From positions 18,413-82,412 of IMG/VR virus record IMGVR_UViG_3300034102_002786: DNA of 64,000 bases. One strand, written 5' to 3'. Position numbers and translations under genes: made by a program. Of this stretch, positions 1,849 through 49,040 are shown piece after piece. The notes beneath the pieces were generated by a model. The model was not told the origin of the DNA. It made no database searches and saw nothing but the letters and a program-made list of their open reading frames with translations. The stretch comes from a virus (lineage: Duplodnaviria > Heunggongvirae > Uroviricota > Caudoviricetes). Every line of letters starts with the position of its first letter. Positions within the stretch are counted from its first letter, which is position 1.

Positions 1849-1849
1849 T

Positions 1850-3234: not shown

Positions 3235-3235
3235 C

Positions 3236-4725: not shown

Positions 4726-4730
4726 AAACA

Positions 4731-5432: not shown

Positions 5433-5439
5433 TAAATGA

Positions 5440-7081: not shown

Positions 7082-7092
7082 AAACAAAAATT

Positions 7093-8046: not shown

Positions 8047-8762
8047 TGTTAGAAAGATTTTTAAATGAAAACGGAAAATTCGATATTCCATCGGATGTAG
8101 AAAGCATCAGATTTGATATAGGATTGAGCTATTGTGCACCAAATTCATCATATTGGTTAAATAAAAATAAAAATACTTTTGTTATTGGAATTGAAGCTAA
8201 TAAATACGCTGTAGATTCTATTATAAGGAATGGTTTATATACTAATCAATATGGTATTGGTGTTTCGTTTCCAAATGATAACTTTTTATTATTAAATCTT
8301 GCACTTGATAACGTTGCCGAAAAAACAACAAAACCATTTTATCATATGTCTAATGATGTTGGTGTTTCATCTCTTTTGAAACCAACAAATCAATTAGATG
8401 ATTCGGTTAGAGAATTAAGTGATGTTGATGTTTATCCATTTTTTGAATTACTTGATAGAATAGATTGGGAAAGATTTGACCATATTGACATTGTTAAAAT
8501 AGATACTCAAGGAAAAGATTTAGATATAATCAAAAGTGCTGGAAAATATTTAGATAAAATAGTTTATTTAAATTGTGAAGTAAATACTTTTAATTATTAT
8601 GAAAATAACCCCAAACCAATTGAATTTGACGAATTTTTATTAGCAAATAATTTTGAAAAAATAGTAAATAATTCTTATGTTAATGGTGAGGTTGTTGATT
8701 CAACATATTTTAATAAAAAATATGAAACATTAAGAAATAAAATTGATTCATTCGTATTATGA
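8046..8762 (+). CDS. FkbM-like methyltransferase (putative)
   Basis: IDIVKIDTQGKDLDIIKSAG resembles the FkbM catalytic segment. Start set at the internal ATG, just past the fcl stop. Confidence 0.45.
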   Translation: MLERFLNENGKFDIPSDVESIRFDIGLSYCAPNSSYWLNKNKNTFVIGIEANKYAVDSIIRNGLYTNQYGIGVSFPNDNFLLLNLALDNVAEKTTKPFYHMSNDVGVSSLLKPTNQLDDSVRELSDVDVYPFFELLDRIDWERFDHIDIVKIDTQGKDLDIIKSAGKYLDKIVYLNCEVNTFNYYENNPKPIEFDEFLLANNFEKIVNNSYVNGEVVDSTYFNKKYETLRNKIDSFVL

Positions 8763-9730
8763 AAAAAATATTAGTTACGGGCGGAGCGGGATTTATAGGT
8801 TCTCATTTAGTTAAGAGATTAGTTGAAAGAGGACATGAAGTTACTGCTATTGATAATTTGGAAAGAGGTAAAGTTGATTTCGTTGAAAACATTAAACGAT
8901 TAAAATTGGTTGTATGTGATTTGACAGATTACGAAACAATGCAGCAATTCTTTGAAGATAAAGATGTGGTTATACATTTGGCATCTAAAGTTGGTGGTAT
9001 TGGTGTTTATTTGGATAATCCATATGGTGTTATGAAAACAAATATGGAGATGGATGCAAATGTTTTGAAAGCAATATTGCATTACAAAATAGATACATAT
9101 TTTTACGCATCATCGGCACACATTTATCCAAAGGAGTTACAAATGATTGCAGACTCTCCAATGATTAAAGAATCAGATGCATATCCAGCTAATCCCGAAC
9201 TAACATATGGTTGGGCAAAACTAATTGGTGAAAAATCAATTGAATCGGCAATAGTTGAAAACGATTGGTTAAAAGCAGCAATAGCAAGATTCATTGGTAT
9301 CTACGGACCAAATCAAGACTTTGGATTGGAAACTGGTTCAGTAATTCCTGTATTCTCACATAGAGCAATCAAATATCCTGAAGTACCATTTAGAGTATGG
9401 GGTACTGGTAAAGAAACTCGTTCTTATTGTTACATTGATGATGCTTTGGATTGTATTGAAAAGATGATTGAAGCAATGGATACTAAGCAATTAGTAGGTC
9501 CATACAATGTTGGTAAAGGTGAAAGATGTACGGTAGAAGATATAGCAAATACGGCTGTTGAAATAAGTGGAAAGGATATTGAAATAGAATGGGATACTGA
9601 TAAGAAAACAGTAATATGGGGACAGTGGTGTGATGTATCTAAAGCAAAAGAAGAATTAGATTGGGAAGCACAAACATCTCTGAGAGATGGGATGATAAAA
9701 GTATATAACGATATAAAACAAAGATTATGA
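8759..9730 (+). CDS. NAD-dependent sugar-nucleotide epimerase/dehydratase (SDR family)
   Basis: N-terminal VTGGAGFIGSHLV Rossmann motif and an SDR-type YxxxK region. 323 aa. Confidence 0.8.
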   Translation: MKKILVTGGAGFIGSHLVKRLVERGHEVTAIDNLERGKVDFVENIKRLKLVVCDLTDYETMQQFFEDKDVVIHLASKVGGIGVYLDNPYGVMKTNMEMDANVLKAILHYKIDTYFYASSAHIYPKELQMIADSPMIKESDAYPANPELTYGWAKLIGEKSIESAIVENDWLKAAIARFIGIYGPNQDFGLETGSVIPVFSHRAIKYPEVPFRVWGTGKETRSYCYIDDALDCIEKMIEAMDTKQLVGPYNVGKGERCTVEDIANTAVEISGKDIEIEWDTDKKTVIWGQWCDVSKAKEELDWEAQTSLRDGMIKVYNDIKQRL

Positions 9731-10662
9731 AAGTATTAATTACAGGTGGTGGGGGTTATTTAGGTTCAACCCTTACTAAACATTTATTAGAAGCAGGTTA
9801 CACTGTTACTGTGTTGGATAATTTGATGTATGGTCAATTATCACTATTACATTTATTTGGAAATCCTAAATTCCATTTTGAATTGGGGGATGTTAGAGAT
9901 AAAAAACTTTTGCAAGAATTAGTATCATTGAACGATGTTATTATTCCATTAGCAGCAATTGTAGGTATGCCGGCATGTAAAGCTAATCCAGAATTAACGG
10001 TAGCTGTGAACTATCAACAGATAGCAGATGTATTAGAAGTATTAAGAGATGACCAAAAGTTAATCTTACCAAATACCAATTCACAATATGGTTCATCGGA
10101 TTCAATCATTACTGAAGAATCGCCATTCAAACCATTATCATTATATGCAACAACTAAGTGTGATGCTGAAAACGCAATGTTAGCAAAAGGAAATGGTGTA
10201 TCGTTGAGATTGGCAACTGTGTTTGGTGTATCACCTCGTATGAGAACTGACCTTTTAGTAAATGACTTTACATATAAGAGTGTGGTAGATGGTTACTTAG
10301 TGTTATTTGAAGGACACTTTAAAAGAAACTACATACACGTTCAGGACATAGCTCGTACATTCCAATTTGTTATTGAAAATTATGAGAAGTGTAAGGGGCA
10401 AGCATTTAATGTTGGATTATCAACCGCTAACTTATCTAAATTAGAATTAGCAGAAAAAATTAAATCACATATCCCATCATTAGTAATTAAGCAAGATGAT
10501 TTCAAAGAAGATTTTGATAAAAGAAACTATATCGTATCAAATGAGAAATTAGAAGCGTTAGGATGGAAACCAATTTATGATTTGGATTATGGAATCAAAC
10601 AATTGATACAGGCTTACAAATTGGTAGTTAAGAAAAATAATCAAAATTTTACAAATTTATAA
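9727..10662 (+). CDS. NAD-dependent sugar-nucleotide epimerase/reductase (SDR family)
   Basis: ITGGGGYLGSTLT Rossmann motif. 311 aa. Confidence 0.7.
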   Translation: MKVLITGGGGYLGSTLTKHLLEAGYTVTVLDNLMYGQLSLLHLFGNPKFHFELGDVRDKKLLQELVSLNDVIIPLAAIVGMPACKANPELTVAVNYQQIADVLEVLRDDQKLILPNTNSQYGSSDSIITEESPFKPLSLYATTKCDAENAMLAKGNGVSLRLATVFGVSPRMRTDLLVNDFTYKSVVDGYLVLFEGHFKRNYIHVQDIARTFQFVIENYEKCKGQAFNVGLSTANLSKLELAEKIKSHIPSLVIKQDDFKEDFDKRNYIVSNEKLEALGWKPIYDLDYGIKQLIQAYKLVVKKNNQNFTNL

Positions 10663-10663
10663 T

Positions 10664-11068
10664 ATGACAGAAAGAAAGTATTTACCTACATTAAGTGAAT
10701 TAGTTGACCGTTTAAGTATCGTTCAATTAAAAGAAGTATTCATTACCGAACATAAAGAAGAATACGCGGAAGAAATAAAAGCAATTGTGCATGATATTCA
10801 ATTGTATTTGGATGAAAGTAAAGAACCAATTACAGCTGAAACAATCAGAGCGATTATAGTTTTATCACAAATGAACTTACATATTTGGCATAACGAATCA
10901 AATTATCGTAAGGGAATTAAAGATGGTAATAATTTAGAATTAACACATGGATTAAATGGAATCCGTAATGTTGCTAAAAACAAAATTCAAGAAGTAATGG
11001 GTGGTAGAAAAGATTATAAGATTGATTGCTTAGCAGCAGAATTTAAAGATTGGGAAATTAGTTGGTAG
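10664..11068 (+). CDS. hypothetical protein
   Basis: 134-aa ORF in operon context. Confidence 0.5.
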   Translation: MTERKYLPTLSELVDRLSIVQLKEVFITEHKEEYAEEIKAIVHDIQLYLDESKEPITAETIRAIIVLSQMNLHIWHNESNYRKGIKDGNNLELTHGLNGIRNVAKNKIQEVMGGRKDYKIDCLAAEFKDWEISW

Positions 11069-11069
11069 T

Positions 11070-11828
11070 ATGAAAATATTAGTTATAGGAGATAGTTGTA
11101 AAGATGTATTCATTTATGGTAAAGCAAATAGACTTTGCCCTGAAGCTCCTGTACCTGTATTCATTCCACAAAGAAAGACTGAAACAGGTGGTATGGCAGC
11201 TAACGTATATGAAAATATAGAATCATTGGGTGTTGAAGTTGATTTAGTTACGAATTCGGAAGTTATTACTAAAACAAGATATGTTGAGGAAAAAACAAAC
11301 CATCAAATCATTAGAGTAGATTCTGATTCGGCCAAATCAAAAAGAGTAGAAGGACTAGAATATATTCCTTTTGAAAATTATTGCGCAGTTATTATATCAG
11401 ATTACAATAAAGGATTTTTAGAGTATGATGATATTGAGTATATTTGTTCAAAGCATGATATTGTATTCATTGATACTAAAAAGATTATTAATGAAAAAAT
11501 GTTAGGAGCTAGGTTCATTAAAATAAATGAGCATGAGTATGAAAACAATATCGCAGCTGGACAATACTTCAAAGAATTCTACGATAAATTAATTGTAACT
11601 ATGAGTGGAAAGGGATGTAAGTATATGGATAAAGAATACAATGTGGCAGAAGTTGAAGTTAGAGATAATAGTGGCGCCGGAGATTCATTTATTTCTGCAT
11701 TGGTAATTCAATATTGTAGAACAAATGATATTCAAAGTGCAATAATTTATGGTAATGAATGTGCCACAATAGCAGTTCAACATAAAGGAGTTACTAAAGT
11801 TGGTAAACATTTAAAAGCACTTCCATGA
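11070..11828 (+). CDS. PfkB-family sugar kinase resembling HldE domain I (heptose-7-phosphate kinase-like)
   Basis: ILVIGDSCKDVFIYGKANRLCPEAPVPVF and TGGMAANV match the RfaE/HldE kinase-domain pattern. A C-terminal GAGD anion-hole motif is present. Confidence 0.6.
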   Translation: MKILVIGDSCKDVFIYGKANRLCPEAPVPVFIPQRKTETGGMAANVYENIESLGVEVDLVTNSEVITKTRYVEEKTNHQIIRVDSDSAKSKRVEGLEYIPFENYCAVIISDYNKGFLEYDDIEYICSKHDIVFIDTKKIINEKMLGARFIKINEHEYENNIAAGQYFKEFYDKLIVTMSGKGCKYMDKEYNVAEVEVRDNSGAGDSFISALVIQYCRTNDIQSAIIYGNECATIAVQHKGVTKVGKHLKALP

Positions 11829-13201
11829 CAAAATTAATAATATTTGATTTGGATGGTGTATTGGTTGAAGCAAAACAAATACATTACGATACGCTTAATC
11901 AGGCTCTTAGAGAAACTGAAATCGTAACAGGTAATGAATATGTTATTACCGAAGCTGAGCATCTTTCAATTTATGATGGATTAAAGACAACCCAAAAATT
12001 AGAACTACTTACAAAAAATAAAGGACTACATCCTGAGTTTTATGACAATATTTGGTTTAGAAAACAACACCTAACAATTCAGGCAATATCACAATTGCAA
12101 ACAAATCATATATTGGTTTATCTATTTAATGAGTTGAGGGAAAGGGGGTATCAGCTCGCATGTTGCTCAAACTCAATTAGGCGCTCGGTATTGGTAATGC
12201 TTTCAAAGATAGGTCTTATTGAGTATATGGACTTAATCCTCTCCAATGAGGATGTAAAGAACTCTAAACCGCATCCTGAAATGTATTGGAAGGCTATGAG
12301 TATGATGGGTGTATTGCCGGAAGAAACCCTAATTGTAGAAGATTCTCCACATGGGTTATTGGCAGCAAGTAGAAGTAGAGCAAGTGTATTAAGAGTAGAT
12401 AACCCGCATGATTTGACATTGGAAAAAATAACAAACAAATTAAACGAAAAGAAAAGTATGAGTACACCAAAATGGCAAGGTGGTAAGATGAATGTATTAA
12501 TTCCAATGGCAGGAGCAGGAAGTAGATTTCAACAGGCAGGTTATACATTTCCAAAACCACTAATTGATGTGGAAGGTAAACCAATGATTCAGGTTGTAGT
12601 GGATAACTTAAATATAGAAGCTACATACATTTATGTAGTACAAAAAGAACATAGAGAAAAGTATAATTTAGATACTCTCCTAAACTTAATCACTCCTAAT
12701 TGTAAGATTGTAGAAGTTGATGGTTTGACTGAGGGAGCTGCTTGTACAACCCTATTAGCAAAAGAATATATTGATAACGATGCTCCATTGGTTATGGCAA
12801 ACTCTGACCAATTTGTAGAGTGGGATTCAAATGAGTTTATGTATAAGATGATTGAACAAAAAGTTGATGGTGGTATTGTTACTTTTAAAGCAACACATCC
12901 AAAATGGTCATTCGCTAAAGTAGATGACTATGGATATGTAACAGAAGTTGCGGAGAAGAATCCAATTTCAGATATAGCAACTGTTGGTGTTTATTATTGG
13001 GCTAAAGGTTCTGACTATGTTAAATATGCGGAACAAATGATTGATAAGAACATCAGAACTAACAACGAATTTTATACTTGTCCAACATTTAATGAAGCAA
13101 TTGAAGATGGTAAGAAAGTAAAAACATTTAACATTGAAAAAATGTGGGGATTGGGAACACCTGAGGATTTAAAATATTACTTAGAAAATTATAACAAATA
13201 A
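11825..13201 (+). CDS. bifunctional protein: HAD-family phosphatase/mutase domain fused to a sugar-1-phosphate nucleotidylyltransferase domain
   Basis: N-terminal IIFDLDGVLVEA is the HAD motif I. The C-terminal half begins MNVLIPMAGAGSRFQ..PKPLIDVEGKPMIQ, a nucleotidyltransferase G-x-G-x-R signature. Confidence 0.6.
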   Translation: MTKLIIFDLDGVLVEAKQIHYDTLNQALRETEIVTGNEYVITEAEHLSIYDGLKTTQKLELLTKNKGLHPEFYDNIWFRKQHLTIQAISQLQTNHILVYLFNELRERGYQLACCSNSIRRSVLVMLSKIGLIEYMDLILSNEDVKNSKPHPEMYWKAMSMMGVLPEETLIVEDSPHGLLAASRSRASVLRVDNPHDLTLEKITNKLNEKKSMSTPKWQGGKMNVLIPMAGAGSRFQQAGYTFPKPLIDVEGKPMIQVVVDNLNIEATYIYVVQKEHREKYNLDTLLNLITPNCKIVEVDGLTEGAACTTLLAKEYIDNDAPLVMANSDQFVEWDSNEFMYKMIEQKVDGGIVTFKATHPKWSFAKVDDYGYVTEVAEKNPISDIATVGVYYWAKGSDYVKYAEQMIDKNIRTNNEFYTCPTFNEAIEDGKKVKTFNIEKMWGLGTPEDLKYYLENYNK

Positions 13202-14427
13202 TGGCACAATATCAACGTATAACATTTATTATACCTTGCCGAAATAATTTAAAATATTTAAAGCAAGCAGTTAATAGTATTGAAGATTGTTATGGGGATA
13301 CTCATAACATAGTAATATTAGATGATGCTTCTAATGATGGAACTTGGGAATGGGTAAACAACCTAAATAAACCATACATTAAAACATATAGGAATGGTTC
13401 TGATAATAGAGTAGGACATACTGTACTTTATGATATTGGTATTAGATTAGCCGAAACTCCGGTAGTAACTATATTACATTCGGATATGATTGTAACTCAA
13501 AACTATGTTGGGAATATGCTAAAACATTTAAAACCAATGAGCGTAGTTTCAGCAACTCGTATTGAACCACCATTACATCCACCTGGTCCTGAAAAGTATG
13601 TAATGGATTTTGGTATGGAGCCGGAATCATTTGATAATGGTGCATTCCAAAAGTTCGTTTATGAAACCGAATATGTGATGGAAGATAAAACAACAAAAGG
13701 TATCTTTGCACCTTGGATGTTATATAAAGAAGATTTTGTTTGTATTGGTGGACATGACCTTTTATTCGCACCAATGGAGTTGGAAGATTCTGATATATTC
13801 AATAGATTTCATTTACAGCAATATGAGTTAATACAAAGTAGAGATGCTTTTGTATATCATATGACTTGTAGAGGTTCACGTTTCAAAGATGGCATTGAAA
13901 TAGAAAAGGTAATTGATTTACCAGATGGAACAAAATGGTATAAACCAAAAGATTCTGAAGAATATACAAAACTTCGTCAAAACAAATTTAGAGAATGGTG
14001 GAGAAAATGGCATACTGATGTTTTACATGATGAACTTATGATGCCAATTGTACCAAACAGATACGATACCTCATTTGTAGTTCATAATTGTACACCTTAT
14101 TTGTTAGGTGTTTTAGAACCTTGGTGTGACCATATTTACGTTGATTGTGATTTTTCTGCTTATATAGCAAACGAAGAAAATCAATCAATGTTCAAAATAT
14201 CAGAAAAGGTTCATAACATAGGAGATTTGATGAGAGGTGATGTACAAATATTGTTTGATGGCTCTAAATTAAAAAATGAACACTATGGGCAGTTTATAAA
14301 AAACATACCATTTATAATTCAACAAACGGATTCAATTGGTAGTTTTGAATGGGATATATTCCAAATACATATACTTAATTTAAGGACAAAAGATATGGTC
14401 CCACCATTTTTCAAAAACGTATTTTAA
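13201..14427 (+). CDS. glycosyltransferase family 2
   Basis: ITFIIPCRNN...ILDDASNDGT is the GT-A fold signature. Confidence 0.65.
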   Translation: MAQYQRITFIIPCRNNLKYLKQAVNSIEDCYGDTHNIVILDDASNDGTWEWVNNLNKPYIKTYRNGSDNRVGHTVLYDIGIRLAETPVVTILHSDMIVTQNYVGNMLKHLKPMSVVSATRIEPPLHPPGPEKYVMDFGMEPESFDNGAFQKFVYETEYVMEDKTTKGIFAPWMLYKEDFVCIGGHDLLFAPMELEDSDIFNRFHLQQYELIQSRDAFVYHMTCRGSRFKDGIEIEKVIDLPDGTKWYKPKDSEEYTKLRQNKFREWWRKWHTDVLHDELMMPIVPNRYDTSFVVHNCTPYLLGVLEPWCDHIYVDCDFSAYIANEENQSMFKISEKVHNIGDLMRGDVQILFDGSKLKNEHYGQFIKNIPFIIQQTDSIGSFEWDIFQIHILNLRTKDMVPPFFKNVF

Positions 14428-14428
14428 T

Positions 14429-15277
14429 ATGAATATAATTGTAACAGGAGGAGTTGGTTTTGTTGGAACTAATTTAGTAAAAAGGTTAAAAGAAGAAGGG
14501 CACAAAGTAATTGTAATAGATGATTATTCTGTTGGAGTGGTTGATAATCAAATTGAAGGAGTAAGATACCTTCCTATGAATGTAGAGCAAATTGATTTTA
14601 TCAAAGGCGATGAAGTTGATTTATGCTTTCACTTAGCAGCATTAAGTAGAATACAACCATCATTTGAAACTCCATCGGATTTCTTTAGAGTAAACGTAAG
14701 TGGTACTGAAGCTGTATGTGATTGGGCTAGAAAGTGGAATGTAAAAGTAGTATATAGTGGTTCATCTTCACAATGGCATGACCCATTTCAATCACCTTAC
14801 GCAATGTATAAAAAGTTAGGTGAGGATGTATGTAAGATGTATCGTAAAGTATTTGGAACTAACATTGAGATTGCAAGATTTTATAATGTGTATGGTCCAT
14901 ACGAAATTACTGATGGTAAGTGGGCAGCTGTAATTGGTAAGTGGAGAGGTCAATGTATAACACAAAAAGCAATAACTATTGTTGGTGACGGTAAACAACG
15001 TAGAGATTTCACTCATATTGATGATATTGTTGATGGATTAATTAAAATAGGATTTGGAACTGAAACACATGAAGATGCATGGGAGTTGGGAACTGGTTTT
15101 AACTATTCACTTAATGAGGTTGCTGATATGTTTGTTAAAAAGTTTGGCGTTGATAAAGTTTATATGCCTAACCAAAAAGGTAATTATAGAGAAACTTGTA
15201 GAGAAAATAACGATGCTTTGGAGAGATTAAATTGGAAACCAACCGATAAATTAAAAGATTATATAAATTCATTATGA
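14429..15277 (+). CDS. NAD-dependent epimerase/dehydratase (short SDR)
   Basis: IVTGGVGFVGTNLV Rossmann motif. Confidence 0.7.
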   Translation: MNIIVTGGVGFVGTNLVKRLKEEGHKVIVIDDYSVGVVDNQIEGVRYLPMNVEQIDFIKGDEVDLCFHLAALSRIQPSFETPSDFFRVNVSGTEAVCDWARKWNVKVVYSGSSSQWHDPFQSPYAMYKKLGEDVCKMYRKVFGTNIEIARFYNVYGPYEITDGKWAAVIGKWRGQCITQKAITIVGDGKQRRDFTHIDDIVDGLIKIGFGTETHEDAWELGTGFNYSLNEVADMFVKKFGVDKVYMPNQKGNYRETCRENNDALERLNWKPTDKLKDYINSL

Positions 15278-16176
15278 AAAAAAGAACCCTAATTTGTATC
15301 CATGTAATGCCATCCGAAATGGAAATGTTTGAAAGACTTATGATTCAAATGCATAAAGCCTTTAAATATCTTAATAACGATGATGATGTTACAATTAAAG
15401 CCACACTAAACCTAAATCCAAAATTAACAGATTGGGATAATAGCGAATACAAACAATCATATTTTGTAGCCAGATTTGGTGTTCTTTTTAATGGATTAAA
15501 AAATATAAATGAAATTATATTAGATACATCTTGTTGGGGAACTACACAACAAAAGAGAGAAAGTTATAAATTGGATTATGACCAATTTATATTTTGTGAT
15601 ACTGATATTCTGTTTCACGAACATATGTTACGATACCAATTGGATGTATCTTACAAATTAGATGGTATTTATTTATTATCTCCATCTTTACCAAAATGGT
15701 GGGATACTAGTTGGGACTACTTAACACATTCTGAATATTTAGATAAACCATTTGGATATGCAATAGATTCAAAAGAAGTTATTGAAAATACATACAATCA
15801 AAAAATTAATTTTATAAGTGCAAAGCAAATTCCAACACTTAAATTTGGATGTGGAATGCATACTTTATATTCTAAATCATTTTGGGAATTAGTAGATATT
15901 CCGGAATCATTTGGGGGATATGGGCCTGAAGATACATATGGGATGGAAGCCGGAAAGATAGCAATAAAATTAGGATACAATGTACAACAATTTGTATTAG
16001 ATGGGGTTTATATAACAGAGGATTATATTAATAGGGTACCTGAATTTGCTGATAAAATAAAACCAATAGATAAGAAAAAGGAGTTTTATGATAGGGCCTA
16101 TGATATAGCAAGACAAGAAATTTCAACATTCGCTACAAAATTAATTCAAAAAAATCAACCTAATCTTCAAATCTAA
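15274..16176 (+). CDS. hypothetical protein (last gene of the glycan operon)
   Basis: 300-aa ORF; no motif recognised. Confidence 0.5.
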   Translation: MKKRTLICIHVMPSEMEMFERLMIQMHKAFKYLNNDDDVTIKATLNLNPKLTDWDNSEYKQSYFVARFGVLFNGLKNINEIILDTSCWGTTQQKRESYKLDYDQFIFCDTDILFHEHMLRYQLDVSYKLDGIYLLSPSLPKWWDTSWDYLTHSEYLDKPFGYAIDSKEVIENTYNQKINFISAKQIPTLKFGCGMHTLYSKSFWELVDIPESFGGYGPEDTYGMEAGKIAIKLGYNVQQFVLDGVYITEDYINRVPEFADKIKPIDKKKEFYDRAYDIARQEISTFATKLIQKNQPNLQI

Positions 16177-16202
16177 TATTTATTATCGTAAAATTAGATG
16201 AA

Positions 16203-16529
16203 ATGAATATAAAAGAGCAAATTAGAGCTATAATAAGAGAAAACTTCATAAAAGAGATGGGTATTAACGATACTCACCTTAAAGCTATTATGAAATACTA
16301 TGATAGAGGTACTCCATCTACAAAGAAGCAAGTAGCTATTGTAGTAACTGGAAAGAAAACATCAAATAGAGGTCAGATTCTAAATGACCTTATGGATATG
16401 GACTACCATGAAATTTTGGATACCGAAAAGAGATTGAAGTATGTAAAAGAATACTTCGATAAGAAAGGACAAGAAAGAGTTGCAGCAGCGTTACCTCAAA
16501 CTGAAGAAGAACCACAAAAAGACATCTAA
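16203..16529 (+). CDS. hypothetical protein
   Basis: 108-aa ORF. Confidence 0.45.
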   Translation: MNIKEQIRAIIRENFIKEMGINDTHLKAIMKYYDRGTPSTKKQVAIVVTGKKTSNRGQILNDLMDMDYHEILDTEKRLKYVKEYFDKKGQERVAAALPQTEEEPQKDI

Positions 16530-17879: not shown

Positions 17880-18152
17880 ATGGGAGTATCAATAGTTATA
17901 GTGGACTGTACAAAGCAGGACATAAATAAGGCTCTTAAAGAATTCAAAAGAAAGGTTATTAAGTCTGGGCATATAATAGAATTAAAAAACCGAAAGGAAT
18001 ACACTAAGCCCACAACTCAAAAGAGAGAAGAAAAACAAAAGGCTATTCGTAGAAATCAAAGAGAAGTAATTTTGGACAAAATTGCTATCGGAACACTTTC
18101 TGAATCAGCATTGGGAACTAAGAAGAAGAAAAGGGGATTTTCTCAAGATTAA
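17880..18152 (+). CDS. hypothetical protein
   Basis: 90-aa basic ORF. Confidence 0.45.
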   Translation: MGVSIVIVDCTKQDINKALKEFKRKVIKSGHIIELKNRKEYTKPTTQKREEKQKAIRRNQREVILDKIAIGTLSESALGTKKKKRGFSQD

Positions 18153-18218
18153 AATCATTTCTTTTAGTATTTGAATATATTTACTGTTATAACATTACAA
18201 AAATAACATAAAAGAACC

Positions 18219-20609
18219 ATGTCATTAATATTAAGAATTCCTAAAGGCTCTCCACTTACAGCTTCCGAAATGGATGCCAACTTTTCTTATCTTGAAAATT
18301 TGATAAATATTGGAACATCCGGTACTGGCGGTTCTGCTGGCTCAGGTGGCTCATCTGGTTCAAGCGGAAGTAGTGGTACAAGTGGGTCAAACGGAAGTAG
18401 TGGCTCAAGTGGCTCTAGCGGTACTAATGCAAGTGCAGGTTCATCTGGTTCATCTGGTAGTAGTGGTTTATCACAAAATGGTACTGATGGTTCAAGCGGT
18501 TCAAGCGGCTCATCGGGTAGTTCAGGAGAAAGTGGTAGTAGTGGTTCAAGCGGCTCAAGTGGTTCATCCGGTCAAAGTGGGACATCTGGTGTAAATGGAG
18601 AAAATGGTACATTCTTTGGAACTTCGGGAAGTTCTGGTTCATCTGGAGTGAATGGTGTACAAGGTTCACCTGGTTCTTCTGGTTCAAGCGGCTCAAGTGG
18701 AGAAAGTAGTTCAAGCGGTTCAAGCGGTTCAAGCGGTTCAAGCGGAATTTCGGGAGATTCTGGTACAAGTGGTGTAAATGGTACATCTGGTTCTTCTGGT
18801 AGTAGTGGATTACCTGGTTCATCAGGTTCTAGCGGCTCATCGGGTACAAATGGTTCACAAGGAAGTGATGGCTCAAGTGGGTCATCAGGTTCTAGCGGTG
18901 GTCCGGGATTGCCTGGTACTGATGGTTCAAGCGGAAGTAGTGGCTCAAGCGGTACAAGCGGCTCAAGCGGAAGTAGTGGGTCATCGGGTAGTAGCGGTAC
19001 TGATGGTGCTGGTACATCTGGCTCGAGCGGCTCAAGCGGTACAAGCGGAACTTCCGGTAATGGTTCGCCAGGAACTTCTGGCACAAGCGGTACATCTGGC
19101 ACAAGCGGCTCATCTGGTGAAAATGGTACAAGTGGCTCAAGCGGTAGTAGTGGTTCATCGGGTACAAGTTTACTTCCATTATCAGGCAGTACAAATAATG
19201 GTCTAATAACTTATTTACCGGCTGGAAGTGGAAGTGTTGAAACTAATCTTACATTTGATGCAGTAACAAATACTTTATCCGTTTATGGTAAAGCACATAT
19301 TAGTGAATTTGTAAGTGCATCTGGGGTTTATTTATCACAATCAGCAAATCCTGAAATTGTTTCTCCATCATCGTTAAGTTTGACAGCAGCAACTGTAGTA
19401 TTAATTTCATCATCATCACTTAGGTTGGCATCTTTTACAAACGCTCAAACCAATAGTTTAGTATTAGGTGAGGGACAGTTGATTTATAATTCAAGTGAAG
19501 CAAAAATTATGGGTTATACGGATTCTAAATGGAGACCGATAGCTTATGATGAAATAGTAACAGCTATTAATACATTTACAGGTTCAGCTAGAATTGAATT
19601 AAATAATATAGAATCTTACACTGCTTCATTAAAAGCAGTAGCTATTGTTTCATCATCAACTCAAATACAAAACTATGATGTATTTGCTTTAAACTCAAAT
19701 TTATATGAATCAACTGGTTCTATAAAAGGAGAAATTTCGGCAATAGAATTATATACTGCTTCATTAAAAGCAGTAGATATTGTATCTTCATCAACCCAAA
19801 TATCAAACTATTATAAATTTGCAGAAACCGCATCGGCAAACACTTTTTATGGTACTCAAACAATTAGTGGTTCATTTAACTTAACCGGTTCAATGATACA
19901 AAGTGGATTAAGCACACTAATTGGTAACACTATATTAAGTGGTAGTATTCAAATGAGTGGGTCAACCGTTCAAACTGGAGACAACACGCTAATTGGTAAT
20001 ACTGTATTAAGTGGTTCTGTTTTTGTAAGTGGTAGCACGCACTTCCAAAATTCAATAATGACCGTAACGGGTTCATCATACTTTACTGGTTCAATGTATG
20101 TTGATGGTGATTTTTACAAAAATAGACAGAAGCAGTTTAATTTCCTATCATTGGTAAATACGGGTTCGTTATTACTAACACAAAACCAATTGTATTCCGC
20201 ATCTTTTGTTAATGGAGTATCACCATTATATGTAAAAAGTGGTATGTATTTAAGTGGAAGCGCTGGCGCGAATACTTATACGAAAATAGTTTTTGAACAT
20301 ACTGGTATTTACAACTTCCAATATAGTATTCAAATGGATACTAACGATAATCAGATTGCAACCCTTCATACTTGGTTTGCAAAAAATGGAACTGATGTTG
20401 AGTATTCTAACTCCGTATTTGGTGTAGCTAATAACGGATATAGTATTGGTTCAATGAATTTAATATATACTATGGAATCTGGTAGTTATATGGAGTTACG
20501 ATATGCAACTTCGGATACTAATTTAGAATTAGCAAGTGTTAGTAGTTCATTGGTTCCTGTTAGACCTATAGCGCCAGCCATCATAGCAACTGTAACACAA
20601 GTAGCATAA
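18219..20609 (+). CDS. collagen-like repeat fibre protein (putative tail or virion fibre), with an N-terminal attachment-like domain, ~300 aa of G-S/T-S triplets and a C-terminal globular domain
   Basis: 796-aa ORF. The N-terminus SLILRIPKGSPLTASEMDANFSYLENL resembles conserved phage fibre N-termini. Residues ~30-310 are uninterrupted Gly-X-Y triplets in which X and Y are almost only Ser, Thr, Asn, Asp or Glu. Confidence 0.75.
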   Translation: MSLILRIPKGSPLTASEMDANFSYLENLINIGTSGTGGSAGSGGSSGSSGSSGTSGSNGSSGSSGSSGTNASAGSSGSSGSSGLSQNGTDGSSGSSGSSGSSGESGSSGSSGSSGSSGQSGTSGVNGENGTFFGTSGSSGSSGVNGVQGSPGSSGSSGSSGESSSSGSSGSSGSSGISGDSGTSGVNGTSGSSGSSGLPGSSGSSGSSGTNGSQGSDGSSGSSGSSGGPGLPGTDGSSGSSGSSGTSGSSGSSGSSGSSGTDGAGTSGSSGSSGTSGTSGNGSPGTSGTSGTSGTSGSSGENGTSGSSGSSGSSGTSLLPLSGSTNNGLITYLPAGSGSVETNLTFDAVTNTLSVYGKAHISEFVSASGVYLSQSANPEIVSPSSLSLTAATVVLISSSSLRLASFTNAQTNSLVLGEGQLIYNSSEAKIMGYTDSKWRPIAYDEIVTAINTFTGSARIELNNIESYTASLKAVAIVSSSTQIQNYDVFALNSNLYESTGSIKGEISAIELYTASLKAVDIVSSSTQISNYYKFAETASANTFYGTQTISGSFNLTGSMIQSGLSTLIGNTILSGSIQMSGSTVQTGDNTLIGNTVLSGSVFVSGSTHFQNSIMTVTGSSYFTGSMYVDGDFYKNRQKQFNFLSLVNTGSLLLTQNQLYSASFVNGVSPLYVKSGMYLSGSAGANTYTKIVFEHTGIYNFQYSIQMDTNDNQIATLHTWFAKNGTDVEYSNSVFGVANNGYSIGSMNLIYTMESGSYMELRYATSDTNLELASVSSSLVPVRPIAPAIIATVTQVA
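18300..19200 (+). repeat. coding low-complexity repeat (GGN-AGY-AGY)n encoding (Gly-Ser-Ser)n
   Basis: Repeated ggttcaagcggctcaagtgg-type units. The repeat creates spurious ORFs in all six frames of the track. Confidence 0.85.
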
Positions 20610-20656
20610 TTTATTTTAAATTATTTTAAAATAAAATACTTATGTAAAACAAAGTT

Positions 20657-21073
20657 ATGATATATTGGTTTACGGGGCAGCCGGGTACGGGCAAAACAAT
20701 ACAAGCAAACAAACTTAAAGAACTTCTCCAAACGGAAAAACGTAATTGGAGAAAGGATGTCTTTCATATTGATAACGATACGTTTGATATAAATGAAGCA
20801 CAAATAATTTCAGCCTTTTTAAATAATAATAATTGTGATGTTGTAGTTTCTATCACATCGCCTGATTTAAAACAAAGAGAGGAATTCAAAAATAAATGCG
20901 GTGATGGTATAGTAGAGATATATGTACATGCTAATAAGAAAAAATTGAAAGATAGAATGTGCGAATACGAACAACCGCAAGAAAACTTTTTTGATATGGA
21001 TACAACATCAGATAATGCAGTACAATCATTTACTAAATTAGTTCATTATTTGAGAGAAAACCAAAAGATATGA
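20657..21073 (+). CDS. P-loop NTPase, putative nucleotide/nucleoside kinase
   Basis: Walker A GQPGTGKT at the N-terminus; 138 aa. Confidence 0.5.
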   Translation: MIYWFTGQPGTGKTIQANKLKELLQTEKRNWRKDVFHIDNDTFDINEAQIISAFLNNNNCDVVVSITSPDLKQREEFKNKCGDGIVEIYVHANKKKLKDRMCEYEQPQENFFDMDTTSDNAVQSFTKLVHYLRENQKI

Positions 21074-26651: not shown

Positions 26652-26690
26652 TTTTGCTATATCAGGAAATCTTCGTATATTTGGGTATAA
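26652..26690 (+). promoter_or_regulatory. Bacteroidetes-type promoter (-7 TATATTTG at 26675-26682)
   Basis: gaTTTTGctatatcaggaaatcttcgTATATTTGggtat, upstream of the ATG at 26714. Confidence 0.55.
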
Positions 26691-26713
26691 TTAATCAACA
26701 AAACCCCTTTTAT

Positions 26714-28930
26714 ATGAGTTGGTATTCCGATTTTAAGACAGGTACAAAAGACCACTTAGTTAGTGGCAAATCCAAAAAAAGTAAATCATATAGTTCTTAT
26801 GGTAAATCCTCTTGGTGGATGGACGATTGGGATGTGGATTACCACTCTCCAGTTTATAGTACATACACTACAAAAGAGATTGCTACTAAGAACCTATATA
26901 AGTTGGCAGCTCATCGTAGAGCAATCGCTAACTTCGTATCTATTGTAACAGGTCAATCTATTCCTGTTAAGTTTTCAACTAAAGGCGATTCCTATACTGA
27001 TGGTAAGGTAGTAACTATTTCGGCTAACATAGCTGAACCGAAGGAGTTTGACCCGGCCGTAGGTTTGGCATTGCATGAAGGTTCACACATCAAACTTTCC
27101 AATTTCCAATTATTGAGAGATTTGGATTCGGCAATACATCGTATTGTTGGTAGTGAAGAATACAAACGATTGGATGAAGTTTCTAAAGCTAAAGGTATTC
27201 AATACTTTACAGGTATTGTGAAAGACTTACTTAACTATGTAGAAGATAGAAGGATTGATAACTTCATCTACAAATCAGCACCCGGTTATAGAGATTATTA
27301 TCGTTCAATGTATGATAAGTTTTTCAATGACCCTGCTATTGATAAGGGTATGAAATCTGATGAGTTCACCGAAGAAACGTTTGAGGCTTATATGTTCCGA
27401 TTGATTAACCTACATTCTAAATTCAGTAGGTTAGATGCCCTTAAACAATTACGTTCTATCGCTTCGGTAATTCAACTTAATCAAATCAGTAGGTTGAGAA
27501 CAACTGAAGATGCACTTAAAGTTGCTATTGAAGTTTACTCAATAATTGTGGAAGCTATTGAACCACTTAATCAGCAACAACAACAAAACGGAATTGGACA
27601 AGGTAGTGGTAATGGGCAAGCAGGTGAGGGTGAGCAAGAAGCGGGTGAAGATGATATTGATGTTCAAATGAGTGATGATGATGGTGATGATAAAAGTGGT
27701 GATACCAATGGTGATTCGGATATGAGTGGTGATTCTAATGAACCTGCTGAAGATGGTAAAGGTATGACCGGTAAGATTAGTGTTAAAGTTGGTAAAGGTG
27801 GTAAACCTTCCGATAAACCTGCTGATGGTAGATTATCACAAAGACAGATGGACATCATTCGTAAGAAGATTGAGAAACAAAAAGAGTTCTTACGTGGTAA
27901 CATTAAGAAATCTAAAATGTCTCAATCTGAATCCAAACAACTTCAATCAATTGAGGAAGCTGGCGCAGAGATGAAAGTAGTAGCACAGGATTATTATGGT
28001 ACTTCTTCTTCGTTCAAAGGTATTGAATGTGTTGTGGTTAAGAAGATGACTCGTAGCTTAATGGAGCAAGATAACTTCCCACTTACAACCAAAAGATGGA
28101 GTAGTACCGAAGATACTATGTATGAGCAGCACGCTAAAGAAGTGTTAGAAGGTATTCGTATTGGTACTTTATTGGGTAAGAAAATGCAAGTTAGAGGTGA
28201 GAGTAGAGAAACGATTTTCAATCGCCAGCTTGTAGGTAAGATGGATAAACGAATGGTATCTTCTTTGGGGTATGGTAATGAGCATGTGTTCTTTACTAGA
28301 GAGATTGATATGTTCAAAAAAGCTAACCTACATATTTCAGTAGATGCCTCTGGTTCAATGAGTGGTTCTAAGTGGAATAAAACTATGACTAATATTGTGG
28401 CATTGGCTAAGGCAGTTGATATGATTCCTAACCTTAACATTCAAATTAGTTTCCGTACAACAACTGGTGAGTTACCTTATATTGTATTGGCTTATGATAG
28501 TAGAGTGGATAAGTTTATGAAGGTTAAGCAGTTGTTTGGTTATTTACATCCAAACGGAACTACGCCTGAAGGTTTGTGTTTCGAAGCAATTTCAAAACAA
28601 ATGGTAGGTAGTAATGGCGAAGTTGATTCATACTTCTTAAACATATCAGATGGTGAACCTTACTTCCATGGCAAGGGTATGAGTTATAGTGGTAGTAATG
28701 CAGCTAAACACACTCGTAAGATGATGAAATCTATTGAGAGTATGGGTATCAAAGTATTGAGTTACTTTGTGGCAGATAATGGTTACGATATGGATGAAAC
28801 CACAAATAGTTCAGCTCGTATATTCAAAGAGTGTTATGGACCTTCAGCTAGTTATATTAATGTAACTAATGTAAACGAAGTGGCCCGTACAATGAACAAA
28901 TTGTTTATGAGTAAACCACAAAATTCATAA
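26714..28930 (+). CDS. CobT-like protein with C-terminal von Willebrand factor A (vWA) domain
   Basis: MIDAS motif DASGSMSGSKW in the C-terminal third. Start moved to the ATG downstream of the promoter, because the track's TTG start lies inside it. Paired with the downstream AAA_5 ATPase. Confidence 0.65.
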   Translation: MSWYSDFKTGTKDHLVSGKSKKSKSYSSYGKSSWWMDDWDVDYHSPVYSTYTTKEIATKNLYKLAAHRRAIANFVSIVTGQSIPVKFSTKGDSYTDGKVVTISANIAEPKEFDPAVGLALHEGSHIKLSNFQLLRDLDSAIHRIVGSEEYKRLDEVSKAKGIQYFTGIVKDLLNYVEDRRIDNFIYKSAPGYRDYYRSMYDKFFNDPAIDKGMKSDEFTEETFEAYMFRLINLHSKFSRLDALKQLRSIASVIQLNQISRLRTTEDALKVAIEVYSIIVEAIEPLNQQQQQNGIGQGSGNGQAGEGEQEAGEDDIDVQMSDDDGDDKSGDTNGDSDMSGDSNEPAEDGKGMTGKISVKVGKGGKPSDKPADGRLSQRQMDIIRKKIEKQKEFLRGNIKKSKMSQSESKQLQSIEEAGAEMKVVAQDYYGTSSSFKGIECVVVKKMTRSLMEQDNFPLTTKRWSSTEDTMYEQHAKEVLEGIRIGTLLGKKMQVRGESRETIFNRQLVGKMDKRMVSSLGYGNEHVFFTREIDMFKKANLHISVDASGSMSGSKWNKTMTNIVALAKAVDMIPNLNIQISFRTTTGELPYIVLAYDSRVDKFMKVKQLFGYLHPNGTTPEGLCFEAISKQMVGSNGEVDSYFLNISDGEPYFHGKGMSYSGSNAAKHTRKMMKSIESMGIKVLSYFVADNGYDMDETTNSSARIFKECYGPSASYINVTNVNEVARTMNKLFMSKPQNS

Positions 28931-29105: not shown

Positions 29106-30311
29106 ATGGCAAAGTCTAATGTAGACAAAGTGAGTAAAGTAATCTTCAAAGTAGTGAAGGTAGGCTCACATTTCAAACTAGCAAATACTGCTGGTAAAAT
29201 TGTAGGTACTAACGGAATTAGTACTGGTACTCGTAAGAAAGCTTTCGAAGCTGGTAAAGCACTTCGTAAAGTAGTTGGTAGTGGTGGTAAGATTCAATAC
29301 CGCTTAACCGATATGGCTGAATTTGATAACTTAGTTGCTCCATTGAAAAGCAACGCCGAAGTTAATGTTGAGAAATTGGATAATCATAAAGAGATTACCG
29401 ATTTTATCCATAACGAATCGGTTAAACTTAAACCTGAAGGATTGGTTATTTCAGACCTTAAATGGAAATACCTTATTCGTTCAGCTGTGAGAGCTAAAAA
29501 TATTATGATGACTGGACCTGCTGGTTGTGGTAAGACATTAGCAGCTAAAGCATTAACTAAAGGTTTAAAGAGACCTGATTTCTATTTCAACTTAGGTGCT
29601 ACGCAAGATGCTAGAGCAACGTTGATTGGTAACACGCACTTTGATTCTAAGAAAGGTACTTTCTTCGCTGAATCCGCTTTCGTAAAAGCAATCACCACTC
29701 CAAACGCTGTTATCCTATTGGATGAGTTGAGTAGAGCACATCCTGATGCTTGGAATATTCTTATGACAGTGTTGGATTTGGGACAACGTTACCTTCGTTT
29801 GGATGAAGCTGTTGATTCACCAATTGTAAATGTGGCTGAAGGTGTTACCTTTATCGCTACGGCTAACATTGGTGGTGAATATACATCAACGCGTGTTCTT
29901 GACCGTGCTATCTTAGACCGTTTCACTACAATTGAAATGGATGTATTGAACGATACGCAGGAGTTTGACTTGTTAAAGTATATGTATCCAGCTGTTAATG
30001 ATGATGATTTGAAAGCAGTAGCTGAAATCGCTCACCATACTAGAGAAATAGCTAAAGGTGGTGATGGTAAATTATCAACTGGTGTATCAACTCGTGCTAG
30101 TGTAGAAACTGCTGGACTTATCTATGATGGATTCAGTTTGTTCGAAGCAGCTGAGATTAGTATGTTCCCCTTCTTCAGTAATGATGGTGGTGTGGATAGT
30201 GAACGTACCTATGTTAAGCAGTTGGTACAAAAGTATGTAAAGGATGAGAAAGCTGATGAGGCTTTATTCACCGAACCAACCGAAGATGATAGTGAAAAAA
30301 TTGTTTGGTAA
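29106..30311 (+). CDS. CobS-like AAA+ ATPase (MoxR/CbbQ/AAA_5 family)
   Basis: Walker A MMTGPAGCGKT and Walker B VILLDELSRAHPD...NILMTVLD. Confidence 0.75.
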   Translation: MAKSNVDKVSKVIFKVVKVGSHFKLANTAGKIVGTNGISTGTRKKAFEAGKALRKVVGSGGKIQYRLTDMAEFDNLVAPLKSNAEVNVEKLDNHKEITDFIHNESVKLKPEGLVISDLKWKYLIRSAVRAKNIMMTGPAGCGKTLAAKALTKGLKRPDFYFNLGATQDARATLIGNTHFDSKKGTFFAESAFVKAITTPNAVILLDELSRAHPDAWNILMTVLDLGQRYLRLDEAVDSPIVNVAEGVTFIATANIGGEYTSTRVLDRAILDRFTTIEMDVLNDTQEFDLLKYMYPAVNDDDLKAVAEIAHHTREIAKGGDGKLSTGVSTRASVETAGLIYDGFSLFEAAEISMFPFFSNDGGVDSERTYVKQLVQKYVKDEKADEALFTEPTEDDSEKIVW

Positions 30312-30403: not shown

Positions 30404-31030
30404 ATGTTAAAGAAAGCAAACGAAAACGAAGTAATTGATTCCTTTGAGAAGAAGAAAAGGATTAGAGATGCGGCTAAATACTATGGCCTGTTTTTAGAAT
30501 CATTAGGATTTGATTATGAGGCTGACCCACAAACGGTAGAAACTCCTTTGAGGGTAGCTAAAGCTTGGGTAGAGGATTTGGTTAAAGGGAGTATGACACA
30601 TGCACCAAATATAACTGTATTTCCAAATGAGGAAGGTTATGATGGTATAGTAATTCAGACTGGTATTAAGGTGAACTCAATGTGCGCTCACCATAACTTA
30701 CCTTTCTATGGATATGCAGCTGTAGCTTATCTGCCCGAAAAGAATGTAATAGGATTGAGTAAGTTGAATAGAGTTGTAGATTGGTTTAGTAGAAGGCCAC
30801 AAATGCAGGAATCGCTTACACAACAAATACACAAATACCTTAGTGATAAATTGGAATGTGAGCATGTGGCGGTATCAATCAGCGGACATCACCTTTGTTG
30901 TGGTATGAGAGGTGTACAACATCCTGATTCCTTAATGACTACCAATAAATTTAGTGGTAGGTTTTTGGAAAAGGATAATTTGGTGAGAGAAGAATTTATG
31001 AACGCTATAAAAATGAATAAACTTAATTAA
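30404..31030 (+). CDS. folE: GTP cyclohydrolase I
   Basis: SMCAHHNLPFYG catalytic motif (CEHH-type) and GLSKLNRVVDWFSRRPQMQE. Confidence 0.85.
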   Translation: MLKKANENEVIDSFEKKKRIRDAAKYYGLFLESLGFDYEADPQTVETPLRVAKAWVEDLVKGSMTHAPNITVFPNEEGYDGIVIQTGIKVNSMCAHHNLPFYGYAAVAYLPEKNVIGLSKLNRVVDWFSRRPQMQESLTQQIHKYLSDKLECEHVAVSISGHHLCCGMRGVQHPDSLMTTNKFSGRFLEKDNLVREEFMNAIKMNKLN

Positions 31031-48806: not shown

Positions 48807-48878
48807 TGTGGGGTAGAGCAGAGGTAGCTCGCAAGGCTCATAACCTTGAGGCCGTTGGTTCGAATCCTTCCCCCGCAA
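48807..48878 (+). tRNA. tRNA-Met-like (anticodon CAT), copy 1; the T-stem has two T-T mismatches
   Basis: Acceptor TGTGGGG/CCCCGCA, D-stem GAGC/GCTC, anticodon stem CAAGG/CCTTG with loop CTCATAA, T-loop TTCGAAT. The acceptor is identical to the tRNA at 52002. Confidence 0.55.
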
Positions 48879-48887
48879 CAAAAAAGA

Positions 48888-48921
48888 TTTGGTAGTTTGA
48901 AAAAATTATCGTATCTTTACA
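48888..48921 (+). promoter_or_regulatory. tandem promoter copy P2
   Basis: aaaaagaTTTGgtagtttgaaaaaattatcgTATCTTTAcaaagtt. Confidence 0.55.
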
Positions 48922-49040
48922 AAGTTAAGGTTGAAGCCATCAACTAATAAAACCGATTGAGTGACTCGTTAAACATTAGTTTCGTTAGAGTGAAAAGAAA
49001 CTACAAAGCCGGATACTTTAACTAACTAATTAAAAAAAGA

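Follow-up and report, generated by a model that had tools for sequence, protein, structure and literature searches.

What kind of protein, and what kind of stalk, is built from a long glycine repeat that almost completely lacks proline? The question is raised by a gene in a 64,000-nucleotide (nt) stretch of Caudoviricetes DNA (hereafter, the window), positions 18,413 to 82,412 of IMG/VR record IMGVR_UViG_3300034102_002786. The open reading frame (ORF) at 18219-20609, on the + strand, starts with ATG and encodes a protein of 796 amino acids (aa), in which a collagen-like segment of Gly-Ser/Thr-Ser triplets is followed by several further modules and a globular C-terminal head. We conclude that the product is probably an accessory, horizontally exchanged homotrimeric virion fibre, that is, an adhesin, from a large phage of aquatic origin (the longest related contigs measure 270-370 kb), and that the triplets serve in it as a collagen-type spacer. 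Projecting 120 homologues of the C-terminal part (479 aa) onto the protein sequence, together with the analysis of the N-terminal part, gives the following layout:

18219-18311, + strand: N-terminal 31 aa with a putative anchor motif, MSLILRIPKGSPLTASEMDANFSYLENLINI, which recurs at the start of other fibre-like ORFs
18312-19169, + strand: collagen-like region, aa 32-317 (286 aa), with 91 triplets that are mostly Gly-Ser/Thr-Ser, five Pro and neither Lys nor Arg
19170-19289, + strand: junction after the collagen-like region, approximately aa 318-357, LLPLSGSTNNGLITY...VETNLTFD..LSVYG, a motif common to three IMG/VR ORFs
19290-19550, + strand: orphan 'neck', approximately aa 358-444, with a predicted local distance difference test (pLDDT) score below 50
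19551-19898, + strand: two copies of the repeat IE.YTASLKA..IVSSSTQI.NY, approximately aa 445-560, covered by 46-94 of the 120 homologues
19899-20135, + strand: shaft-like short SGS/TGS repeats, approximately aa 561-639, pLDDT 70-80
20136-20609, + strand: globular head, aa 640-796 plus the stop codon, a TNF/C1q-type jelly roll according to AlphaFold2 (AF2) and Foldseek

The 91 Gly-X-Y triplets are split over seven unbroken runs of 4-33 triplets each. Gly is replaced in register at two sites (ASA and SSS), and four breaks, read from the sequence as GLSQNG, GTFFG, G-A-G and G-N-G, shift the register. Position X holds Ser in 52 triplets, Thr in 22 and Pro in none, and position Y holds Ser in 67, Asn in 8, Asp and Pro in 4 each and Thr in none, all 22 Thr residues of the segment being located at X. 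Ser and Thr together account for 148 of the 286 residues and Asp plus Glu for 9, and Lys, Arg, His, Cys, Met, Trp and Tyr are missing altogether. Gly makes up 33.6% of the segment, with only 5 Gly residues at the 182 X and Y positions. This periodicity far exceeds the expectation from composition, given that 10,000 shuffles of the residues yielded 21.3 ± 5.6 triplets, with a maximum of 46. The segment also scores above the cut-off of the Pfam Collagen family (PF01391; 111.2 bits against 27.2). Thus, the long triplet stretch noticed in the preliminary description of this DNA is real, and its characterization as proline-free is nearly right, the five Pro residues amounting to 1.7% of the segment. 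The layout that it proposed, with a fibre-attachment-like N-terminus and a globular C-terminus, holds in outline, except that the N-terminus consists of just 31 aa and that the C-terminal part is ~480 aa of several modules, of which the globular head (~150 aa) is the last. The repeat stretch has a G+C content of 51%, compared with 33% in the remainder of the gene, and for this reason gives rise to spurious ORFs of 94-176 aa. These confirm what the preliminary description had noted for the other frames of the repeat; four of the five contain such ORFs, and both strands are affected.

A collapsed repeat, the assembly artefact that would have undone this description, is very unlikely because the coding DNA is the same in three independent assemblies (two from JGI and one from ENA), the 46 GSS triplets are encoded by 20 different 9-mers, and no exact repeats of 30 nt or longer are present in the coding DNA. 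The exact 796-aa protein is present on at least 14 contigs; samples with the contig include JGI 3300044971, JGI 3300044970 and ENA ERZ27272090. Tandem arrays with periods of 9, 18, 27 and 36 nt show 69-83% matches and are indel-free in all but one case. A nucleotide search of INPHARED returned a sole match, that of the repeat (window 18759-19170, 63%) to LR756501.1/LR756503.1, two unannotated 735-kb records of uncultured phages, which, judging by this match, carry a similar repeat.

The head is confidently modelled with a TNF/C1q jelly-roll fold. The AF2 model of the C-terminal half, which was built on a 40-sequence alignment (A1) and is confident for the shaft repeats and the head only, shows a beta-sandwich with pLDDT mostly between 90 and 97 at aa 688-796 (model residues 371-479) and between 74 and 90 just upstream. 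Foldseek comparison of the head with the PDB gave probability 1.0 and target-normalised template modelling (TM) scores of 0.60-0.73 for 4-1BBL, BxpB/ExsFA, the C-terminal domain of BclA, F-BclA, APRIL and C1QL2, and also probability 1.0 for the receptor-binding protein of lactococcal phage 1358 and a portal-tail chain of cyanophage A4, with TM scores of ~0.3 to these longer chains. The best matches in BFVD are mostly proteins of uncultured tailed phages, many of which align over ~160 columns with a root-mean-square deviation of 1.6-2.9 Å. Many of the matches are annotated as 'Collagen triple helix repeat', C1q, peptidase S74 or lambda Stf repeat. In sequence searches, aa 643-796 matched no Pfam family, C1q (PF00386) included, even at an expectation value (E) of up to 10, and the C-terminal half had no match in the PDB. 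Folds of the TNF/C1q/BclA type are obligate trimers, and we infer that the window protein is a homotrimer. Pfam, PHROG, AF2 and Foldseek results support the initial idea of a fibre protein that is collagen-like, begins with a short N-terminus resembling an anchor and ends in a globular head of a trimer-forming type.

The modules of the protein are mobile. In a tblastn search with the C-terminal third, the matches, from freshwater phages and from phage phiAC-1 of Acinetobacter, were confined to the head, and an exhaustive HMMER search of the head family retrieved 3,105 cluster representatives at E <= 1e-3, 404 of them at E <= 1e-10. Among the best 150 members of this family, 51 of the 144 new representatives contain at least eight Gly-X-Y triplets; in some of these 51 relatives, Pro accounts for as much as 32% of the residues at X and Y, and others lack Pro and abound in Ser and Thr. 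Because one head family pairs with both types of segment, the proline-free segment would have the same structural role as a conventional collagen segment. This pairing is the best comparative argument for regarding the proline-free segment as a collagen-type stalk.

The modules between the segment and the head differ greatly in their distribution. The junction motif, G[LF]x[PL][LV][ST]G[ST]T[ND]NG[VL][IL]T...VE[TSA]NL[TR]F...L[SA][VL]xG, recurs with 49-55% identity directly behind the proline-free collagen domains of L082, L126 and L108, IMG/VR ORFs that are unrelated in other respects, and could be an element for trimer registration or nucleation. The neck, in contrast to the other C-terminal modules, is reached by only 1-9 of the 120 homologues; a search of 5.8 billion proteins with aa 315-451 found no homologues at E <= 0.001, and phmmer found no match among IMG/VR ORFs. 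The IE.YTASLKA..IVSSSTQI.NY repeat is the most widely shared module, is common to many metagenomic fibre-like proteins, and is present in several copies in many of the homologues. In the SGS/TGS repeats, the Gly and Asn columns are nearly invariant across alignment A1; the monomer AF2 model assigns no secondary structure to this region, which we predict to form a beta-helical trimer shaft.

The N-terminal motif, R..KGSPLT..EMDANFSY, is also found at the beginning of five other fibre-like ORFs (L053, L050, L059, L133 and L134), among which L053, on a 299-kb contig, encodes 2299 aa with 625 proline-free triplets. A scan of viral contigs with the whole protein returned two matches to this motif alone, L133 and L134 (60% identity to that of the window), and the same scan of metagenomes returned no relative. 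In L134, the motif opens a protein of 202 aa, which has a match among the PHROG tail-fibre families and is encoded among small fibre-like genes adjoining the terminase gene. The N-terminal 34 residues of the window protein themselves show a weak match (E 0.0018) to phrog_38064, 'tail collar protein', and AF2 predicts, with low confidence, a helix at residues 15-32. No signal peptide-like hydrophobic stretch or membrane segment was read from the sequence. It is a reasonable inference that these 31 residues are the anchor of the fibre.

These modules suggest how the fibre might assemble and act. The TNF/C1q-like head and the repeat shaft would trimerise first, the register would be set by the conserved junction motif, and the 286-residue Gly-Ser/Thr-Ser segment would then zip from its C-terminus to its N-terminus into a collagen-type triple helix. 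The resulting stalk would be ~80 nm long (286 residues with a rise of 0.29 nm per residue; PMC8968730) and 1.5 nm wide. The N-terminal motif would dock the fibre onto the particle, and the head, held far from it, would make the first, probably reversible, contact with a ligand on the host surface, most likely a glycan.

The triple helix itself faces several objections. The known stabilisers of collagen, imino acids at X and Y and pairs of Lys/Arg with Asp/Glu, are absent from the segment, with 5 Pro, no Lys and no Arg in 286 residues, so that the initial observation that no Pro-based stabilisation is available is borne out and extends to salt bridges. Host-guest peptide work by Persikov et al. 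in 2000 reportedly assigned Ser a low triple-helix propensity at both X and Y. According to one argument, collagens in general make use of salt bridges, which the segment lacks, in order to fold (PMC11923368), and the AF2 monomer of aa 1-354, at pLDDT ~30, is uninformative on the stalk. All these observations count against a triple-helical spacer, and some of them fit the main rival account, in which the Gly-Ser/Thr-Ser segment is a disordered, hydrated tether joining the anchor to a trimeric C-terminal adhesin and its periodicity is a by-product of the expansion of a 9-nt repeat. The composition, with hardly any Pro and no charge pairs, resembles that of engineered Gly-Ser linkers, the nucleotide repeat has periods of 9, 18, 27 and 36, AF2 gives a pLDDT of ~30, and even (Gly-Pro-Thr)10 is a random coil unless glycosylated (PMC11923368). 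The triple-helix reading is nevertheless favoured because the Gly periodicity persists despite the divergence of the repeat units and despite 56 Ser codons of the AGY type, each a single transition away from Gly. Neutral drift would scramble Gly and Ser through AGY<->GGY exchange, yet in units so diverged that GSS is written in 20 different 9-mers, Gly has entered the X and Y positions no more than five times and has been replaced in register just twice. Furthermore, the head family also pairs with proline-containing collagen segments, and the conserved junction motif comes after proline-free segments. We therefore consider the disordered tether unlikely.

The collagen-type spacer that we favour is not peculiar to this gene. 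IMG/VR was scanned with a pattern of eight consecutive Gly-[WSN]-[WSN] codon triplets, which yielded at least 120 stretches (L010-L129); the following counts are for the matches listed. These stretches gave 131 ORFs, 98 of them with at least 30 triplets; Pro is below 2% in 85 of the 98 and Lys plus Arg below 1% in 78. A single ORF contains up to 793 triplets, and strict Gly periodicity is seen in more than 100 viral ORFs. Across the 16,501 triplets of the 98 ORFs, Thr occupies 45% of the X positions compared with 8% of the Y positions, and Ser 75% of the Y positions. The preference of Thr for X runs opposite to the rule described for collagen-like proteins of Gram-positive bacteria, which puts Thr at Y. 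The class that uses only Ser and Thr is thus common in uncultivated viruses, and the gene analysed here is an ordinary member. Collagen-like fibres of phages had been characterized in the preliminary description as Gly-Pro-X rich, which is correct for the proteins of Escherichia coli prophages (PMC3368898) and does not extend to environmental viruses, where 85 of the 98 ORFs among the matches listed fall below 2% Pro. In the viral collagens catalogued from UniProt, Pro makes up 22% of X and Lys/Arg 38% of Y on average (PMC3368898), a composition to which the Ser/Thr-only class does not conform, and Gly-X-Y repeats with Pro, Ser and Thr were reported as early as 2005 for cyanomyophage P-SSM2 (PMC1079782). 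In the literature searched, we found no biophysical study of the Ser/Thr-only class.

The accessory status of the fibre follows from its genomic location. The gene occupies a hypervariable slot with conserved borders:

17880-18152, + strand: gene for a phage ribosomal protein S21, the left border of the slot (Pfam Ribosomal_S21, E 3e-11; 79-86% identity in relatives)
20657-21073, + strand: gene for a 138-aa adenylylsulfate (APS)-kinase-like P-loop protein, the right border of the slot, with scores well below the family cut-offs

Relatives were retrieved with the S21 and GT2 proteins and include contigs of up to 274 kb (L137), 271 kb (L150) and 369 kb (L166). They share the backbone GT2 - orf300 - ... 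- HAD - (S21) - [slot] - kinase - HNH, in which an HNH endonuclease gene comes after the P-loop kinase gene, and the APS-kinase-like gene is retained beside the slot in all relatives seen. In four relatives the slot lacks a fibre gene: the kinase gene directly follows S21 in L136, L137 and L138, and in L144, where S21 was not detected, HAD and a 175-aa ORF precede the kinase gene. In others (L135, L141, L146-L157, L005 and L007), the slot contains non-collagen fibres of 705-1065 aa that start with MANKKISELP. Collagen-type fibres are found in two further relatives. In P0040/L004, a 602-aa fibre with 43 proline-free triplets is encoded directly after S21; over the C-terminal 320 aa of this fibre, the identity with the window protein is 41%. 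In L158 (fibre gene at 13679-16276), an 865-aa fibre carries many 'SSLRYFYQTTSSIHAFTASQIGKDGTLAEVT' repeats followed by proline-poor (GTS)n of ~59 triplets, and ends with '...SDIRFKNII...' and a coiled-coil tail, a putative intramolecular chaperone of the S74 type that is known from trimeric fibres. The collagen spacers of the slot fibres range from 43 to 91 triplets. Compared with the fibre-less relatives, the fibre gene is a clean indel of ~2.5 kb (window 18153-20656), across which the leader sequence of the kinase gene is conserved, as shown for L137. Because the indel is clean and the kinase leader is kept with or without the fibre, the fibre appears to be a dispensable accessory cassette. 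The locus clearly exemplifies a plug-in fibre slot in a lineage of jumbo phages, and is where host-range switching would naturally be sought. The kinase gene is preceded by a peptidase S8 gene in L005 and L007, and the long contigs of both end 1-3 kb upstream of their fibre gene; assemblies may break in this variable island.

The same comparison bears on whether the stalk is stabilised by glycans. A set of carbohydrate-related genes is located upstream:

51-16176, + strand: sugar-nucleotide/glycosyltransferase island of 16 kb, upstream of the fibre gene

The island encodes a UDP-GlcNAc 2-epimerase, a DegT aminotransferase, a GNAT protein, GT11, GT1-like and GT2 glycosyltransferases, three FkbM methyltransferases, four epimerases/dehydratases of the SDR family, a PfkB kinase and a HAD-nucleotidyltransferase fusion. 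The preliminary description invoked glycosylation, and it is conceivable that dense O-glycosylation of Ser and Thr by this island is a prerequisite for the triple helix, or for an extended stalk, much as BclA and Riftia cuticle collagen rely on glycosylated Thr. With Ser or Thr at 148 of 286 residues, acceptor sites would be plentiful, a sugar-nucleotide and glycosyltransferase gene set lies upstream, L005 has glycosyltransferase genes inside its fibre slot, and BclA, which has the same head fold, is glycosylated (PMC8968730). Yet the island, including GT2 at 13201-14427 and orf300 at 15274-16176, is present as a mosaic in all close relatives, among them those with non-collagen fibres and L144 with its empty slot, and is for that reason not specific to the collagen fibre; a specific link between island and fibre, sought by synteny, was not supported. 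The documented stabilising glycosyl-Thr, in BclA (PMC8968730) and in Riftia cuticle collagen and the (GPT)10 peptide (PMC11923368), is at Y, whereas Thr is at X in 22 of 22 cases in the window protein and predominantly so in the class. No protein O-glycosyltransferase was recognised, and the targets of phage glycosyltransferases may instead be DNA, glycans on the host surface or different virion proteins (PMC12619734). Glycosylation of the stalk is thus possible and unsupported, the circumstantial link being weak, and a stalk that depends on it is, in our estimate, improbable. The blocks of the island (Epim2-u260-GNAT-DegT; GT11-FkbM; SDR1-3-PfkB-HAD/NTP-transferase; GT2-orf300) are shuffled among related jumbo-phage contigs (L140-L166), and GT2 is separated from orf300 by an inserted SDR gene (14429-15277) in the window only.

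Among known systems, the closest in design is BclA of the Bacillus anthracis/cereus exosporium, along with F-BclA. Like the window protein, these combine an N-terminal anchor peptide, a hydroxyl-rich collagen stalk of variable length and a C-terminal domain of the TNF/C1q fold that forms a trimer, as we predict for the phage protein. The head matches four BclA structures (1wck, 2r6q, 2z5w and 3twi) and F-BclA (9h38) with Foldseek probability 1.0 and TM scores of 0.65-0.69, with an identity of 15-16% and no sequence homology. However, the prevailing triplet of BclA is Gly-Pro-Thr, in which Pro takes position X and Thr, in glycosylated form, position Y, whereas X is Ser or Thr and Y is Ser in the window protein, which also differs in having ~320 aa of additional shaft modules between the stalk and the head and in originating from a phage rather than a spore. 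Assignment to the BclA-type exosporium glycoproteins is ruled out by the absence of Pro at X and of Thr at Y in all 91 triplets. C1q, C1QL and proteins of the adiponectin type likewise combine a collagen stalk with a jelly-roll head, and C1QL2 (4qpy) and TNF ligands are among the fold matches, but the stalks of the animal C1q/TNF proteins are rich in Pro/Hyp and charged residues. Two proteins that have shaft repeats in common with the window protein, P0057 and P0079, end in a true Pfam C1q domain.

Among phage proteins, the side-tail-fibre proteins EPclA/B of E. coli O157 prophages also have a collagen domain linking globular domains, and a dumbbell shape and a triple helix have been demonstrated experimentally for EPclA (PMC3368898). 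The EPcl collagen, with 48% Pro at X and 31% Lys/Arg at Y, melts at 42 C (PMC3368898); the window stalk has no Pro at X and no Lys or Arg, and the EPcl domains PfN, PCoil and PfC are absent from the window protein. P-SSM2 orf028 (PMC1079782) and the proteins of uncultured Caudovirales annotated in UniProt as 'Collagen triple helix repeat' are likewise predicted fibres with Ser/Thr-rich Gly-X-Y repeats; three BFVD entries (A0A6J5MA04, A0A6J7X3T0 and A0A6J5Q2Q7) have both the collagen annotation and a match to the AF2 model. The orf028 repeats include Pro, and the window protein combines an N-terminal motif and a neck in a way of its own. In the literature searched, none of these predicted fibres has a structural or biochemical characterization. 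Several other assignments were rejected. The NCBIfam models of the streptococcal Scl and Legionella Lcl adhesins score far below their cut-offs (116.9 vs 325, 71.9 vs 500 and 68.7 vs 400 bits) and match the repeat only, and the match to PDB entry 8zxl_X, 'spindlefibril/axialfibril', with its (GAPGSQGAPGLQ)n repeat, is a generic collagen match; a literature search on these fibril names gave nothing of relevance. A neck whisker similar to T4 fibritin, the gene of which lies next to gp13 in T4, would be expected to have a coiled coil or a foldon; the window protein has neither, and gp13/gp23 neighbours are seen only for homologues of the C-terminal module in other phages.

The evidence on where the predicted fibre would be attached to the virion points in several directions. 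Of the 18 PHROG families that match the protein, 11 are annotated as tail proteins, mostly by way of the low-complexity repeat; the tail-fibre matches extend over aa 208-413 (phrog_5073) and aa 137-616 (phrog_819), and the C-terminal half alone has a sole match, phrog_5070, of unknown function. Set against a tail fibre are the neighbours of the gene (S21, a HAD phosphatase, the kinase and HNH), which place it outside any recognisable structural, tail or baseplate module, and the genomic contexts of its homologues. In two contigs of other phages, homologues of the C-terminal module (P0024 and P0081) adjoin T4-type gp23/gp13 head-neck genes; in phiAC-1, the gene for the head homologue directly follows the capsid gene; and the short relatives P0120, which has the same N-terminal motif, and P0114 (at L130/L131 and L168) are encoded between a preQ0-type 7-deazaguanine cluster and a family-B DNA polymerase gene. 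The phages of L130/L131 and L168 also encode GroES/GroEL. No structural genes were recognised among the ~40 window ORFs scanned against Pfam or PHROGs, and a scan for promoters and terminators around the gene found nothing above the shuffled expectation. The PHROG matches and L134 favour the tail as the site of attachment, and, because the homologues of the C-terminal module occupy such varied contexts, a neck or capsid fibre is a live alternative.

The location among non-structural genes and the dispensability of the slot could also be taken to indicate a non-virion protein, such as a cell-surface or released adhesin-like product of infection. This appears very improbable to us, given that the protein has no signal peptide or membrane segment and that its modules are common to proteins encoded in fibre and head-neck clusters. 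Equally remote, as a variant of this alternative, is a compact polyglycine-II/polyproline II (PPII) bundle formed by the Gly-rich part. Gly-rich bundles of this type are known from the snow-flea antifreeze protein and the gp38 adhesin of phage S16, and Gly-X-X repeats can form PPII bundles. Such bundles, however, need Gly at approximately two of every three positions; here it is at one in three (33.6%), with 5 Gly residues at 182 X and Y positions, and the AF2 monomer has no compact fold, so that this structure was rejected. Incorporation into the virion, by the N-terminal motif, is thus the assignment that we favour for the window protein.

As an annotation, the gene is routine: it encodes a collagen-like phage fibre with a C1q/TNF-type head, which is a known kind of protein. 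Whether a stable helix forms without proline, charge pairs or glycans is a question for the whole widespread class rather than for one gene. Possibly, Gly-(Ser/Thr)-Ser repeats wind into a collagen triple helix of a third kind, without imino acids or salt bridges, held together by networks of hydroxyl groups and water and by clamps at the ends, or by O-glycans, and aquatic phages may use it widely as a cheap spacer of adjustable length. This generalization is tentative and, on balance, doubtful. If true, it would be an exception to the salt-bridge 'folding code' that has been proposed for collagens (PMC11923368) and would offer protein engineering a simple trypsin-resistant rod free of proline and charge; if Ser/Thr-only segments are indeed triple helices, the sequence rules of collagen widen.

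Elsewhere in the window, all ORFs are on the + strand and the G+C content is ~0.32. Only 4 of the 72 ORFs of at least 100 aa are preceded by a Shine-Dalgarno-like 4-mer, which, together with the G+C content of 32%, hints at a host of the Bacteroidota type. An array of 26-27 tRNA genes for all 20 amino acids (48807-56231, + strand) lies in a 6.4-kb stretch devoid of ORFs of at least 150 aa; among the ARAGORN calls, the one at 50378-50449 stands out by its abnormal anticodon of 2 bases ('tRNA-???') and lacks an Rfam tRNA match. Near the upstream end of the array, just past the first tRNA-Met, a full-length GOLLD RNA is located at 49669-50086 on the + strand (Rfam RF02032, 295.9 bits, E 1e-83). 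A 758-aa ORF at 26654-28930 (+ strand) belongs to no Pfam family and matches only phrog_1576, of unknown function. It is followed by the gene for a MoxR/CbbQ-type AAA ATPase (29106-30311, + strand) and by an ORF at 30404-31030 (+ strand), the counterpart of which in L001 carries a GTP cyclohydrolase I domain.

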